Below, piece after piece: positions 1,366 to 34,355 of a DNA stretch of 39,241 bases. A program made the position numbers and the translations under genes. How positions within the stretch are numbered: the first letter of the stretch is position 1; every line of letters starts with the position of its first letter. The stretch is from a virus. Lineage: Duplodnaviria; Heunggongvirae; Uroviricota; Caudoviricetes. The stretch spans positions 1-39,241 of IMG/VR virus record IMGVR_UViG_3300015262_000003; one strand, written 5' to 3'. Under the pieces are notes generated by a model. That model saw only the letters and a program-made list of their open reading frames with translations, did not search any database and was not told the origin of the DNA.

Positions 1366-1394
1366 TTGACTTAATTAGTTTTTATTGATACAAT
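1366..1394 (+). promoter_or_regulatory. sigma70-type promoter of the ncRNA/tRNA operon
   Basis: TTGACT (1366-1371), 17-nt spacer, TACAAT (1389-1394). The predicted start is near 1401. Confidence 0.75.
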
Positions 1395-1698: not shown

Positions 1699-1776
1699 TG
1701 GCGTCTAGCAATCAAGGTGAATGCGCTGGACTGTTAATCCAGATAGAGCCCGGTTCGATGCCGGGGATGCCAGCCA
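1699..1776 (+). tRNA. trnN: tRNA-Asn (GTT)
   Basis: Acceptor TGGCGTC/GATGCCA, anticodon arm CTGGA-CTGTTAA-TCCAG, T-loop TTCGATG, encoded CCA. Confidence 0.95.
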
Positions 1777-1784
1777 AACAAATT

Positions 1785-1860
1785 GCCGTTATAGCTCAGA
1801 TGGTAGAGCGCTAACCTTGTAAGTTAGATGTCACGAGTTCGATTCTTGTTGACGGCACCA
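1785..1860 (+). tRNA. trnT: tRNA-Thr (TGT)
   Basis: Acceptor GCCGTTA/TGACGGC, D-arm TAGCTCAGATGGTAGAGC, anticodon arm CTAAC-CTTGTAA-GTTAG, T-loop TTCGATT, encoded CCA. Confidence 0.95.
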
Positions 1861-1866
1861 AACAAT

Positions 1867-1992
1867 ACGACATGATGAGACATGAATTGTGGAGGGTTCG
1901 AAACTTCCTATAAGAGTGGTATGGGTCTTTTACTCATTAAGACTAACTTAGCGGTTAGTGTATAGTTGGTTCGATTCCAACTTGTCGTACCA
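1867..1992 (+). ncRNA. 126-nt tRNA-like RNA (acceptor stem, T-arm and CCA, with a non-canonical interior)
   Basis: ACGACA pairs with TGTCGT-A-CCA, and the T-arm is AGTTGG-TTCGATT-CCAACT. There is a second T-like loop GGAGG-GTTCGAAA-CTTCC. I find no canonical D or anticodon arm. The AACAAT spacers on both sides match those flanking the neighbouring tRNAs. Confidence 0.75.
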
Positions 1993-1998
1993 AACAAT

Positions 1999-2077
1999 AG
2001 AGGATTCGCCAAGTCTGGTCTAAGGCATCAGGTTTTGATCCTGACATTCACTAGTTCGAATCTAGTATCCTCTTCCA
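1999..2077 (+). tRNA. trnQ: tRNA-Gln (TTG)
   Basis: Acceptor AGAGGAT/ATCCTCT, anticodon arm TCAGG-TTTTGAT-CCTGA, T-arm ACTAG-TTCGAAT-CTAGT, encoded CCA. Confidence 0.95.
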
Positions 2078-3543: not shown

Positions 3544-3574
3544 TAGTCAAAAAGTATCGGTTTTAAAAATAACA

Positions 3575-4668: not shown

Positions 4669-5151
4669 ATGAGCCAAGAGACTGAACTGACAGCGTTAGC
4701 TCAGGCAATTGGTGCTGATATCAAAAGTCTGAACACTAACAAGGTTTCTGTTGTAGCAGGTAAAGGACTATCTACTAATGATTATACAACAGTTGAGAAA
4801 ACTAAACTAGGTACAACATTGGCTCCGGGATATGACAACTTACTGGTGAATGCTGCATCAACAGGCACAGTAACTTTGAACGTTTCAAGTACAACTGTTT
4901 TCAACCTGACATTGACTGGTAATACTACAATTGCTTTCTCTGGTGTGCCTACACCAACAAACCAAAGTTATAGTTGGCTTGTAAGGGTTACTATGGGTGG
5001 TACAACTCGTACATTGACGTGGCCAACAGTCACTTGGTATACACCGGGAGGCATTCCACCAGATCCACCAGCTATCGGTAAAGTAGTTGAGTATATCTTT
5101 AGTACAGAGAACGGAACAACCATCTTTGGTGGTAAAGGTCGATATACATGA
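4669..5151 (+). CDS. Fibre/appendage protein with an N-terminus paralogous to 4175..4666
   Basis: Shares MS..L..L.QAIGADIK with 4175..4666. Contains the fibre motif KVSVVAGKGLSTNDYTTVEKTKL and a beta-rich C-terminal domain. Confidence 0.65.
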   Translation: MSQETELTALAQAIGADIKSLNTNKVSVVAGKGLSTNDYTTVEKTKLGTTLAPGYDNLLVNAASTGTVTLNVSSTTVFNLTLTGNTTIAFSGVPTPTNQSYSWLVRVTMGGTTRTLTWPTVTWYTPGGIPPDPPAIGKVVEYIFSTENGTTIFGGKGRYT

Positions 5152-13298: not shown

Positions 13299-13712
13299 AT
13301 GACAGACGAAGAAAAGATTTCCCTCCTTGCCCTTATGCTTGGTGATATCCCCGGTGGTCCTTACTACCCAATGTTTTCGGAAGAACAGTATGCTCAGTTC
13401 CTGAAACTCTCTGGTGGTAATGTCAACCAAGCTGCTGTCTACGCTGCAATGTCCGCATCATTCTATGTTGGTGGTGAATCAACAAGAGAAGTTATTGGTG
13501 ATCTTCAATTGTCATCTAGCACAGGTGCAAATTACCTGAAGACTTTGGATTATCTTATTAAGACTGTTGGTAAAGTGCCACCAGCCAGTATGATGCCTTG
13601 GGTTGCTGGCCTTGACAGTTGTGAAAAGAATAAGCTTCTTGAATTCAGGCGCTGTGATGATCCTTGTAAGTTTATAACATTCAGCACTACTGAACAAAGT
13701 TGTGGGTGTTAA
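13299..13712 (+). CDS. Head-tail adaptor/connector protein
   Basis: First gene after the capsid gene, AGGAGG RBS, helical N-terminus and a Cys-rich C-terminal tail. Confidence 0.6.
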   Translation: MTDEEKISLLALMLGDIPGGPYYPMFSEEQYAQFLKLSGGNVNQAAVYAAMSASFYVGGESTREVIGDLQLSSSTGANYLKTLDYLIKTVGKVPPASMMPWVAGLDSCEKNKLLEFRRCDDPCKFITFSTTEQSCGC

Positions 13713-13714
13713 CT

Positions 13715-14104
13715 ATGGGAATGCACGATAGATTGCGTAACATGACAATCAGACAACTAGGGTTAGGTCCAAAAGGAAAAGGTGCACCAGCAACACTTAA
13801 CAAAGTGACAGAAGGTGTGTTTGATCCTGAAACTAGTACAGTGGTTGGTGGTGGGATTGTATCACATGATGGAAGCGGATTGAGGGTCAACTATAAGAGT
13901 TTTGATTATAGAGATGTAACAATTCAACATGATGACTTTAGGTTGTATCTGTGTCCAGTATTAGTTGACGGATCAGATTGTCCAGCACCATCTATTGAAG
14001 ATACCATAAACTTTGATGGTGACTTGTATAAAGTGATCAACATTGAACCTTGGAATGCTGCTGGTGTAGTGTGTGGCTGGAAGTTGCAAATGAGGAAAGG
14101 ATAA
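13715..14104 (+). CDS. Head closure/neck protein
   Basis: Synteny and the pattern EGVFDPET...IQHDDFRLY...DTINFDGDLYKVINIEP...WKLQMRK. The start is probably 13715 or 13721. Confidence 0.65.
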   Translation: MGMHDRLRNMTIRQLGLGPKGKGAPATLNKVTEGVFDPETSTVVGGGIVSHDGSGLRVNYKSFDYRDVTIQHDDFRLYLCPVLVDGSDCPAPSIEDTINFDGDLYKVINIEPWNAAGVVCGWKLQMRKG

Positions 14105-32378: not shown

Positions 32379-32594
32379 TTATACACTTCCTCCTAGTTGT
32401 TTCCACAAACGATGAGTTTCATCTAACCCTTCCATCCGAAGACGTTGATTGATTCGTGATTGAATCAAGTCATCAGCGTTCTTATCTCCCATGTTCTTTT
32501 GAACTACATCCTGACAATCCCAATGACATTGAAGCAAACCATTAAATGTTTGTCCATCAATCATTGGTAAGTTACAACCGGGACAATTACTCAT
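32379..32594 (-). CDS. Small hypothetical protein with a CxxC...HxxC motif
   Basis: MSNCPGC...CHWDC, GGAG RBS, overlaps the end of the HNH gene. Confidence 0.6.
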   Translation of the reverse strand: MSNCPGCNLPMIDGQTFNGLLQCHWDCQDVVQKNMGDKNADDLIQSRINQRLRMEGLDETHRLWKQLGGSV

Positions 32595-33162
32595 TTTGTA
32601 CTCCGTGATCTTCAGTGTATTTTTCAGACGATATCAGATTTACTTCTTTAATCATCTGCTCTCTATGTTCAACTGCAAGTGTGAAAGCTGTGTCTCTACC
32701 AAGTTTATGAACAGGGAAGTTCTTACTAAACTGTTTCCCGTCATCATCCACCCACGAAGCAACAGCATATTCATATTTACCAACTTCTGAAAATGAAACA
32801 CCAGTTTTACCGGATTTGTTTCTAGAATCAATACTTCTGTTACGGGTATTTGTTTTCTTAGTAACTAACCGCATATTCAGAAGTGAATTGTCTGACCTTA
32901 CTCTGTTAATATGGTCAATTGTCATGTTATCTGGAATTGATCCATGAACCAAACACCAAATGATTCGGTGACAATACCTTCTTACTTGCTTACCCAATAC
33001 CCTGAAAGCAACACTCCAATGACCATCTTTGTGAATACTACCACAAATATCACCTTCCGAGTAGAGAAGAATGTTTCTCGCTCTACCGTTGTAAATGTTC
33101 TTTGCCCAAACCAACCCTGATGGACTGGTTGGGTCATATCTGAAATAATCGCTGAAATTCAT
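32587..33162 (-). CDS. Free-standing HNH homing endonuclease with an AP2-like DNA-binding domain
   Basis: HRIIW...IDHINRVRSDNSLLNMRLVT...N HNH motif, RNKSGKTGV...ASW...F...G...AF.LA AP2 pattern, GAGG RBS before ATG 33162. Confidence 0.9.
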   Translation of the reverse strand: MNFSDYFRYDPTSPSGLVWAKNIYNGRARNILLYSEGDICGSIHKDGHWSVAFRVLGKQVRRYCHRIIWCLVHGSIPDNMTIDHINRVRSDNSLLNMRLVTKKTNTRNRSIDSRNKSGKTGVSFSEVGKYEYAVASWVDDDGKQFSKNFPVHKLGRDTAFTLAVEHREQMIKEVNLISSEKYTEDHGVQNE

Positions 33163-33187
33163 ATACACCTCTTACTGTGAAAAGTGA

Positions 33188-33216
33188 AGTATATAACGAA
33201 TTACAAAGATTGTCAA
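33188..33216 (-). promoter_or_regulatory. sigma70 promoter for the HNH gene
   Basis: On the - strand: TTGACA (33216-33211), 17-nt spacer, TATACT (33193-33188), then TCACTT. The -35 box contains the RNA ligase stop codon. Confidence 0.8.
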
Positions 33217-34355
33217 TCCTCTGCAAGCAAATAACGATTTGAAATTACCTTGAAGGAAAAGTCTCGGGTCATGCTCTTGAACACGAAACCTTCACGCATT
33301 TTACCATTCAAGCCACTTGGACCATCTGCATCAGCAAGTGCTTCTTTTACTGTAAGAGGTAAGTATACATCAGTTCCAGCGACTGGTACATGACTGATAT
33401 TATACAATTTGCAGAAGTCTTGACGCTCTTGTGGAAGCATATAACGTCGTTCATCAATCAGGTAAACATCATAGCAGTAGAACTCATTCTGTTCAACACC
33501 TTCAAAGTTCTTTTGAATAGAAGGACCAACCATCTCACCTTGAATTGCCAGATTGCGAACATCGCGAACAAGTGCAGTCAAAAGACCAGCCTTTTGAGCC
33601 ATTTGAGTAAACGAGTTGTCATCAGCTTTCCACTGAGTATCTACCGAGACAAACAGTTTACCCGTTTGTTTAACTTTTGCAAGCCATTCTTTGAATACAA
33701 GTTTGAAACCCTTGTTCTCAGTTTGCATACGGAAGCCAACATTACGAGAAGCAACACCAAGTACACCATCTTTGATGAATACCGTCAGACTACTACCGTC
33801 CAGTTTGAATGTCTTCTCAAACTTCTCATCTTTATCGCAAGCTTGCTGATATTGAACGACAATGTTCTGCACACGAGTTTGGTCAGTCTTAGGAACAAAC
33901 TTAGGGAAACCAAGTGCGGAAGTACCAGACTTCACACCAGCTGCGTTACCATTCAGTTGTTTCTCACCAGCACTTTCATACTTGATAATACCAAGCTTTT
34001 GAGTCAAATCAATATCAACAGCTAGCTTAGAATTGTCATGTAGACCAACTTCACTCAGTGGAATCAACAAGCCTTGACTCAGTTGCTTACGCAGCTTGAT
34101 GGTTTTGATACGAGCATATTGAACATTATCAACAGTGTAGTTCTTACTAGATGCAAGAAATGAGAATGCTGGGTTTGCCACTGGAAGCATACTATCAACT
34201 TCACAGTAAATAGCTTTAGAGCCAGCTACATACAAACCTTTCTGTGCAACTACTTGCCAACCACCTACAAGGGCAAGCTCAATTCGGTCTGCCCCTTCAA
34301 TTGGATGCAGGGAATCAACAATTACAACACGGGCCAACTTACGTTCTTCACTCAC
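33213..34355 (-). CDS. RNA ligase, DRB0094/Rnl2-Rnl5-like, with an N-terminal OB-fold
   Basis: Motif I KLDGSS, IQGEMVG, REGFVFKS, FKVISNRYLL. N-terminal HPIEGADRIELALVGGWQVV OB domain. Confidence 0.92.
   Translation of the reverse strand: MSEERKLARVVIVDSLHPIEGADRIELALVGGWQVVAQKGLYVAGSKAIYCEVDSMLPVANPAFSFLASSKNYTVDNVQYARIKTIKLRKQLSQGLLIPLSEVGLHDNSKLAVDIDLTQKLGIIKYESAGEKQLNGNAAGVKSGTSALGFPKFVPKTDQTRVQNIVVQYQQACDKDEKFEKTFKLDGSSLTVFIKDGVLGVASRNVGFRMQTENKGFKLVFKEWLAKVKQTGKLFVSVDTQWKADDNSFTQMAQKAGLLTALVRDVRNLAIQGEMVGPSIQKNFEGVEQNEFYCYDVYLIDERRYMLPQERQDFCKLYNISHVPVAGTDVYLPLTVKEALADADGPSGLNGKMREGFVFKSMTRDFSFKVISNRYLLAED

Follow-up and report, generated by a model that had tools for sequence, protein, structure and literature searches.

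We report a family of tRNA-shaped, non-decoding phage RNAs that is real, undescribed and absent from Rfam. Its representative here is a 126-nt element at positions 1867-1992 of the window, the whole stretch of 39,241 bases analysed, which forms the beginning of the record of an uncultivated soil phage; that record is 103,241 bp long and has direct terminal repeats. Stable small non-tRNA RNAs have been known from phage tRNA clusters since T4 species 1 and 2, and the family is a second, independent example of them. We are highly confident that the element is a real structured RNA, and it is most probably not an ordinary decoder. The explanation that we find best overall, and hold to be probable, is that it encodes a small, stable tRNA-like RNA that does not decode and is accessory in Otagovirus-like tRNA operons.

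Structure of the element and its covariation

We analysed the element with tRNA finders and RNA family models. On the window region ARAGORN called tRNA-Asn, tRNA-Thr and tRNA-Gln only; the element was called neither as a tRNA nor as a tmRNA. It had no match in Rfam at gathering score, and the tRNA model (RF00005) did not match it even at E up to 10. An earlier reading made from the letters alone (the sequence-only reading) had anticipated such a lack of a tRNA call. At relaxed thresholds the sole Rfam match was tRNA-Sec (RF01852; 15.1 bits against a cut-off of 47, E = 6.1). We rejected this assignment, as the score was below gathering and the D stem of that alignment was only 56% paired across the family. 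A tmRNA was rejected as well, given the missing ARAGORN call and a pair 3-70 that is G-C, U-A or A-U, not G3.U70. The parallel with YrlA RNAs drawn in the sequence-only reading was also abandoned: the Rfam YrlA model (RF02553) did not match the element, its only weak match (14.2 bits against 69) fell outside it, at 1749-1809, and the termini of the element form an acceptor stem.

Folded as a single sequence, the element gave z = -1.86, with 8 of 200 shuffles folding equally well. As this is only weakly better than chance, the case for structure was made by comparison. In an 11-sequence alignment, 94.2% of cells pair, whereas shuffling gives 63.9% and slid registers 36-48%; both sides have changed in 27 of 33 pairs, and each of the six helices is supported. 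Having been fitted to the model, this alignment is biased in its favour. The homologues thus show the covariation that the sequence-only reading had looked to as a check. A plain MAFFT alignment served as an independent check: of the 33 pairs that RNAalifold predicted on it, 22 show compensatory changes.

The fold is a cloverleaf-type four-way junction (Table 1), with a 1-nt linker between the acceptor stem and P2, four nucleotides between P2 and P4, and four more before the T arm. The element resembles a canonical tRNA (RF00005) in its acceptor stem, discriminator, CCA, TTCGATT T loop, four-way junction and genomic context. Indeed, it has a tRNA-type acceptor (7-bp stem, discriminator and 3' CCA) that is 95.5% paired, with both sides changed in six of six modelled pairs, and a T arm at 1964-1982 whose 7-nt loop is of the TTCRANY type. 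The stems described in the sequence-only reading are all present: acceptor ACGACA (1867-1872) with TGTCGT (1983-1988), A1989 and CCA (1990-1992); the T arm with AGTTGG (1964-1969), TTCGATT (1970-1976) and CCAACT (1977-1982); and the hairpins GGAGG-GTTCGAAA-CTTCC (1891-1908) and ACTAAC-TTAGCG-GTTAGT (1942-1959).

At the place of the D arm, which in a tRNA has 3-4 bp closing 7-11 nt, the 5-bp helix P2 encloses an insert of 53 nt composed of a single A, P2a, the P3 hairpin and a 14-nt unpaired strand. All five positions of P2 are paired in 11 of 11 sequences, in five to six different combinations (ATGAG/CTCAT, ATGCG/CGCAT, GTGAG/CTCAC, ATGTG/CACAT, TACAG/CTGTA and ATGCA/TGCAT). The claim that the RNA has no D-arm was therefore half right: a normal D arm is missing, but CTCAT (1933-1937) pairs with ATGAG (1875-1879) at the D-stem position. 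The alternative stems that had been drawn around CTCAT fared badly, the local hairpins being 71% and 56% paired and without covariation. P2a is nearly invariant, with a double change in two of its three pairs, in A4. The 14-nt strand, with its conserved GG, is a candidate D-loop equivalent that would contact the T loop.

At the place of the anticodon arm, which in a tRNA has a 5-bp stem and a 7-nt loop with U33 and purine 37, P4 has a 6-bp stem and the 6-nt loop UUAGCG; five of its seven modelled pairs covary. When the covariance model R1, built from six sequences of the family, was made to align ordinary T4 tRNAs, P4 landed on the anticodon arm and the P2 domain on the D arm. The CCA is encoded in seven of the 12 members, the remaining 3' ends being GTCA, TCCT, ACAG, GTCT and TCTT. 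Since these five lack CCA although the neighbouring tRNAs encode it, the tRNA-like 3' end may not be essential.

Table 1. Coordinates of the element, its operon and related features (window positions unless a locus is named)
Feature	Position	Strand	Basis or remark
Sigma-70-like promoter heading the leader-tRNA operon	1366-1394	+	TTGACT, 17 nt with TG, TACAAT; consensus match only
tRNA-Asn	1699-1776		
tRNA-Thr	1785-1860		
AACAAT spacer, 5' leader of the element	1861-1866	+	repeated at 1993-1998; precedes most homologues
Acceptor 5' strand	1867-1873	+	pairs 1982-1988; U.U at seventh pair in window copy
P2 5' strand ATGAG, D-stem position	1875-1879	+	pairs 1933-1937
A14-equivalent bulge and P2a 5' strand CAT	1880-1883	+	pairs GTG 1916-1918; RNAalifold
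P3 hairpin, variable stem	1887-1913	+	5/6 pairs covary, 77% paired
14-nt unpaired strand GTATGGGTCTTTTA	1919-1932	+	conserved GG and U-run
P2 3' strand CTCAT	1933-1937	+	covariation alignment
P4 hairpin, anticodon-arm position	1942-1959	+	6-bp stem, hexaloop TTAGCG 1948-1953, closing pair C1947-G1954
T arm, 5-6 bp stem, loop TTCGATT	1964-1982	+	4/6 pairs covary, 100% paired
Acceptor 3' strand TGTCGT, discriminator A, encoded CCA	1983-1992	+	sequence
tRNA-Gln	1999-2077		
HNH endonuclease gene	32587-33168		adjoins RNA ligase gene
RNA ligase	33213-34355	-	PF09414 RNA_ligase with N-terminal PHA02142 OB domain
~70-aa two-helix membrane protein	G000 63111-63344	-	plus homologues; not significant after correction
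UUAGCG tRNA-like genes, unrelated uncultivated phages	L093:2663-2787	-	
	L102 near 4735-4767	-	
	L079 near 13699-13733	-	
	L090:544-609	+	same as L120:6069-6134 (-)
	L096:2412-2485	+	
	L124:5028-5106	-	same as L113:1380-1458 (+)
Separate ~115-nt tRNA-like family	L163:3129-3243	+	also L167, L196, L200, L207
	L176:657-774	-	
	L217:7213-7327	+	
~100-nt stretch before tRNA-Ser	L001:1335-1430, L003:1482-1578, L005:1440-1535, L046:8174-8294, L024:6861-6973		
Long conserved tRNA-array gaps	L020:6296-6603, L044:8171-8397, L023:7878-8196, L022:7243-7611		
~45-codon ORF	L023:7472-7600, L044:7808-7945, L046:7339-7475 and others		phages with and without the element
Second tRNA-like stretch in an element-bearing phage	L023:8273-8388		acceptor/T-arm end
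tRNA-Ser with anticodon AGA (A34), Otagovirus	L001:1435-1524, L003:1580-1671, L005:1536-1625		

Distribution and genomic setting

The family comprises 12 distinct sequences of 122-126 nt each. A blastn search of phage records found the element at 68.8% identity over 157 nt in Pseudomonas phage PE09, in an unannotated gap of the tRNA array. Further copies lie in the Otagovirus phages M5.1, COT4 and UNO-G1W1 (Pseudomonas), in six further virus contigs and in one metagenome contig; the routes to these contigs were IMG/VR pattern scans, loci fetched via the terminase, and R1, with which the fetched loci were searched. Eleven of the 12 members sit between tRNA genes, the exception (L135) having no tRNA gene nearby. 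Six of 18 complete relatives carry the element (three of 15 searched at full length, the genome of the window and two others). It is thus a dispensable, accessory gene of ~100-kb Otagovirus-like phages.

Searches with narrower and wider patterns delimit the family. An exact conserved 19-mer had no match in IMG/VR; a strict family pattern gave two matches there, one additional member from metagenomes, and none in GTDB genomes, searched as one per bacterial species. With a pattern of two T-loops ~63 nt apart, the matches were without exception unrelated double-T-loop RNAs or adjacent tRNAs; a family member whose P4 loop differed was not among them. No description of the family was found in literature searches, and it could be added to Rfam.

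The genome containing the window has a GC content of 40%, and the window itself encodes the large terminase, portal, protease, major head protein and tape measure protein. Asn, Thr and Gln are the only three tRNA genes of the whole 103-kb genome, and they share an operon with the element: the promoter is followed by a ~300-nt leader, tRNA-Asn, tRNA-Thr, the element and tRNA-Gln, then by an SGNH lipase gene. No terminator-like site was seen between the operon promoter and position 3574. The AACAAT spacers noticed in the sequence-only reading do flank the element on both sides, at 1861-1866 and 1993-1998. To judge from these shared AACAAU spacers, the single promoter and the lack of a terminator before 3574, it is plausible that the element is co-processed with the neighbouring tRNAs. 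The sequencing runs found to contain the region were all DNA metagenomes, with no RNA run among them. In the window copy the P4 stem CUAAC/GUUAG (1943-1958) has the same sequence as the anticodon stem of the neighbouring tRNA-Thr (1809-1826). This could be chance or local gene conversion; the identity is limited to the window copy, the other members being without it.

The closest analogue of the element is T4 species 1 RNA (rnaC, 139 nt, NC_000866 70908-71046). Both are non-tRNA genes in a phage tRNA cluster. In each, an acceptor-like stem of 7 bp stacks on a canonical T arm, the 5' half carries an additional long hairpin, and the T arm is immediately preceded by a hairpin whose loop has 6 nt. 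The U-rich unpaired strand is very similar too (UAUGGCCUUUUA in rnaC, UAUGGGUCUUUUA in the element). Unlike the element, rnaC lacks a helix around the insert, has CGUCAA as its hexaloop and comes from another phage family. R1 scored rnaC at 11.2 bits, in the 3' part only, whereas ordinary T4 tRNAs reached up to 22.4 bits; homology to rnaC was therefore not detected. Of the T4 RNA C parallel proposed in the sequence-only reading, the architecture was retained, but at 11 bits common descent was not. To our knowledge no function has been established for rnaC.

The invariant hexaloop and its possible targets

In the sequence-only reading, two T-loop-like motifs were the hallmark of the RNA and the hairpin at 1942-1959 was a plain hairpin. 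Both views had to be revised. The second T-loop is present in the window copy, where the 8-nt P3 loop GTTCGAAA (1896-1903) with the flanking C1904 matches the T-loop consensus; a T-loop-like P3 loop is found in eight of the 12 members, but other loops replace it in the other four. Two T-loops are therefore not family-defining, and the emphasis moves to UUAGCG, the family's invariant part. The P4 loop with its closing pair (YUUAGCGG) is identical in 12 of 12 members, over 12 different stems, the closing pair being U.G in seven and C-G in five. As an anticodon loop it would be atypical, with 6 nt (8 if the U.G pair opens) and a C at the place of purine 37.

We asked how often this loop occurs elsewhere. 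The loop 7-mer, at 11-19 nt upstream of a T loop, was present at 58 distinct IMG/VR sites, 10 of which were closed by at least 5 bp; a permuted 7-mer used as a control gave 57 sites, none of them stem-closed. Some of the stem-closed UUAGCG sites sit in scaffolds with unrelated 5' halves, in tRNA-like genes of unrelated uncultivated phages (Table 1). These take the form of a 66-nt mini version, tRNA-sized versions of 74-79 nt, and versions of ~125 nt in two arrays of 18-19 tRNAs; one of these genes was called tRNA-Ala(AGC) by ARAGORN. The recurrence of the stem-closed loop in other scaffolds, with none in the permuted control, indicates that the hexaloop is a selected and probably functional end. 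On balance we favour the view that it is the working end of the RNA.

How could such an RNA work? It would be transcribed from the operon promoter and excised, like its neighbours, by RNase P and the 3' tRNA-processing enzymes. Its acceptor, T arm and elbow part would serve maturation and stability, and the RNA would act in trans via the invariant hexaloop. It is possible that the hexaloop pairs with the anticodon loop of tRNA-Ser(GCU), perhaps also of tRNA-Asn(GUU), masking or titrating both. This loop-loop pairing is our preferred target, although we give it low odds and put it forward tentatively, as a lead. When UUAGCGG was compared with 48 anticodon loops from 19 related phages, full complementarity was confined to Ser(GCU) and Asn(GUU); at the anticodon the pairing is all Watson-Crick for Ser(GCU) and includes one central G.U for Asn(GUU). 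Random 7-mers did as well in 0.7% of cases (Watson-Crick at the anticodon) or 2.5% (G.U allowed everywhere), and when ordered by duplex energy against the hexaloop, the loops of Ser(GCU) and Asn(GUU) take the first three places. In addition, the gene directly next to the element is Ser(gct) in five arrays; in three it is Asn(gtt), and in three others, including that of the window, one or the other lies two places away. These data are suggestive, the complementarity argument being post hoc with p ~0.01-0.03 and the synteny representing few independent events. In real tRNA-Ser(GCU) and tRNA-Asn(GUU) the modification t6A37 would block one of the hexaloop pairs. The genome of the window contains no tRNA-Ser(GCU) gene; and phage-encoded Ser(gct) occurred in four of nine genomes with the element and two of 10 without, giving no signal. 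As to target sites in the phage genome, CCGCTAA, the complement of the loop, was not enriched (four occurrences against a median of eight for permutations).

A known system offers a mechanism for such pairing. In T-box Stem I, the specifier codon and a purine pair with the tRNA anticodon, and a T-loop platform stacks on the tRNA elbow. The analogy is one of mechanism only: the hexaloop presents AGC, a Ser codon, with a purine after it and complements the whole anticodon loop, and in most members a long arm ends in a T-loop motif. Unlike a T-box, the element is free-standing and tRNA-shaped, not a 5' leader; it has no antiterminator and no interdigitated double T-loop, its P3 T-loop is not conserved, and the pairing of the hexaloop with a tRNA is putative. 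An RNA of this kind would be an 'anti-anticodon', whose hexaloop (the AGC codon and its flanks) would engage the anticodon loops of Ser(GCU) and Asn(GUU) in a loop-loop complex; put so specifically, we regard the proposal as rather doubtful. Like T-box Stem I, the long P4-P2-P3 axis, often tipped with a T-loop, may then run along the body of the tRNA. Binding of this kind could protect t6A-type tRNAs from nucleases that attack the anticodon loop. Alternatively, it could keep the halves of cleaved tRNAs in place for an RNA ligase that seals nicks, such as the one encoded in the window (Table 1), or it could titrate tRNA-Ser(GCU) and tRNA-Asn(GUU). We know of no free-standing, trans-acting RNA from phages that reads a tRNA anticodon. 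If the hexaloop does read anticodon loops, it would be a new viral way to manipulate or protect specific tRNAs.

The presence of a phage-encoded RNA ligase led us to consider a splint role in tRNA repair. A PF09414 ligase is found in nine of 26 related records, and as a splint partner it was rejected: both were present in five cases, only the element in four, only the ligase in four and neither in eight, that is, without co-occurrence. We also compared the clustered proteins of 18 related genomes and that of the window, nine with the element and 10 without. None of the 723 protein clusters tracked the element after correction. The best cluster, the two-helix membrane protein of Table 1, was present in eight of nine genomes with the element and two of 10 without (uncorrected p = 0.0045); the next was a SLOG/DprA-like protein found in five of nine and none of 10, and neither is convincing.

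The strongest competitor of pairing with tRNA-Ser(GCU) and tRNA-Asn(GUU), to which we give about the same low odds, is the idea of the sequence-only reading that the RNA may be a decoy, with a tRNA-shaped body that draws a tRNA-targeting protein of the host and an abnormal hexaloop that makes it an uncleavable or tight-binding competitor. The protein might be an anticodon nuclease, a toxin that modifies the CCA end, or a modification or processing enzyme. Selection has kept the acceptor, the T arm and the elbow-forming GG, the patchy accessory distribution is like that of counter-defence genes, and tRNAs for ANN codons (Lys, Asn, Thr, Ser-GCU, Arg-UCU), a class attacked by known anticodon nucleases such as PrrC (PMC13191261), are abundant in the arrays. 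Phage tRNAs and their variants can evade or out-titrate tRNA-targeting defences, for example in T4 and T5 against PrrC-type nucleases (PMC13191261). The element shares with such tRNAs its place as an accessory gene in a phage tRNA array and its altered anticodon region; they, however, are functional decoders with point changes, whereas the element cannot decode normally. Against a decoy, the hexaloop is unlike any natural anticodon loop (6 nt, with C instead of purine 37), and no defence system, anticodon nuclease or protein could be linked to the element, the comparison of genomes with and without it having given nothing significant.

We consider two further possibilities improbable. The RNA might be aminoacylated and act outside the ribosome, for example as an aminoacyl donor, or a class II synthetase might take P4 for a long variable arm. 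ACCA forms the 3' end of seven of the 12 members, P4 precedes the T stem by 2-4 nt, as a class II variable arm would, and the element often adjoins tRNA-Ser genes. However, five of the 12 members have no CCA, the discriminator is A, G or T, the variable-arm loops of the phages' tRNA-Ser are unrelated to UUAGCG save for a partial likeness in PE09, and no co-occurring aminoacyl-transferase gene was found. Just as improbably, the element may act only in cis, as a module for the processing or stability of the polycistronic tRNA transcript, and have no function in trans, as its embedding in tRNA arrays (11 of 12 members) and its tRNA-like spacers could suggest. A processing handle, though, needs no invariant hexaloop, no length-conserved insert and no conserved unpaired strand; the neighbours differ among phages, and most relatives process their arrays without the element.

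It is very unlikely that the element is an unusual functional decoder, with an 8-nt loop U-U-UAGC-G-G and a four-base anticodon for GCUA, or a frameshift or suppressor tRNA. The U.G closing pair of seven of the 12 members does allow an 8-nt loop with U33 and purine 37 to be drawn, but the C-G pair of the other five gives a 6-nt loop, and the D region holds a 53-nt insert. Moreover, none of the 539 GCTA sites in the 103-kb genome joins two long frames by +1 (other 4-mers gave at most six chance candidates), and the lack of conservation in acceptor sequence and discriminator leaves no apparent set of aminoacylation identity elements. A tRNA pseudogene in decay that carries a random insertion, for which nothing speaks beyond the missing tRNA call, has a negligible chance of being correct and is refuted by the comparative data: every helix has compensatory changes, the loops are invariant, and the length is held at 122-126 nt though the sequences differ at about a third of positions, so that the earlier view of a selected tRNA-shaped RNA, not a decayed tRNA, is upheld in 12 members.

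The family offers a well-supported structure, a sharply defined conserved loop and cultured Pseudomonas hosts (for M5.1, UNO-G1W1 and PE09). Since there are cultured phages with the element and close relatives without it, the role of tRNA look-alikes is directly testable.

Other conserved sequences in the tRNA arrays

Several further sequences were observed in the same and other loci (coordinates in Table 1). A separate tRNA-like family of ~115 nt combines a T arm with two hairpins: a GGTTCGAAAC hairpin in the 5' half, and a covarying one at the anticodon-arm position whose 7-nt loop, CAUCGCA, is invariant. In many phages a conserved non-coding stretch of ~100 nt lies directly before tRNA-Ser(UGA) or tRNA-Ser(AGA); its core is GUGAGGGUUCUGC ... 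GGGGUAAxAGUCCyCACAGG, and it looks like another structured RNA or a leader. Long conserved gaps of the tRNA arrays contain further sequences that are not tRNAs but have T-loop-like motifs, such as AAUAGCGAACGGGGUAUACGCCCC ... GGGUUCGAUUCCC; these are probably more tRNA-like or structured RNAs.

One element-bearing phage (L023) has a second tRNA-like stretch with an acceptor/T-arm end, which R1 did not call. Its hairpin loop GUCAUGAA is the P3 loop of the L044 copy of the element, and it has the motif UUUAGCAG too. A conserved ORF of ~45 codons, starting MTKFYDATKEH, lies within tRNA arrays directly 3' of the element or of tRNA-Asn. Finally, Otagovirus genomes encode a tRNA-Ser with the unusual anticodon AGA, that is, with A34.
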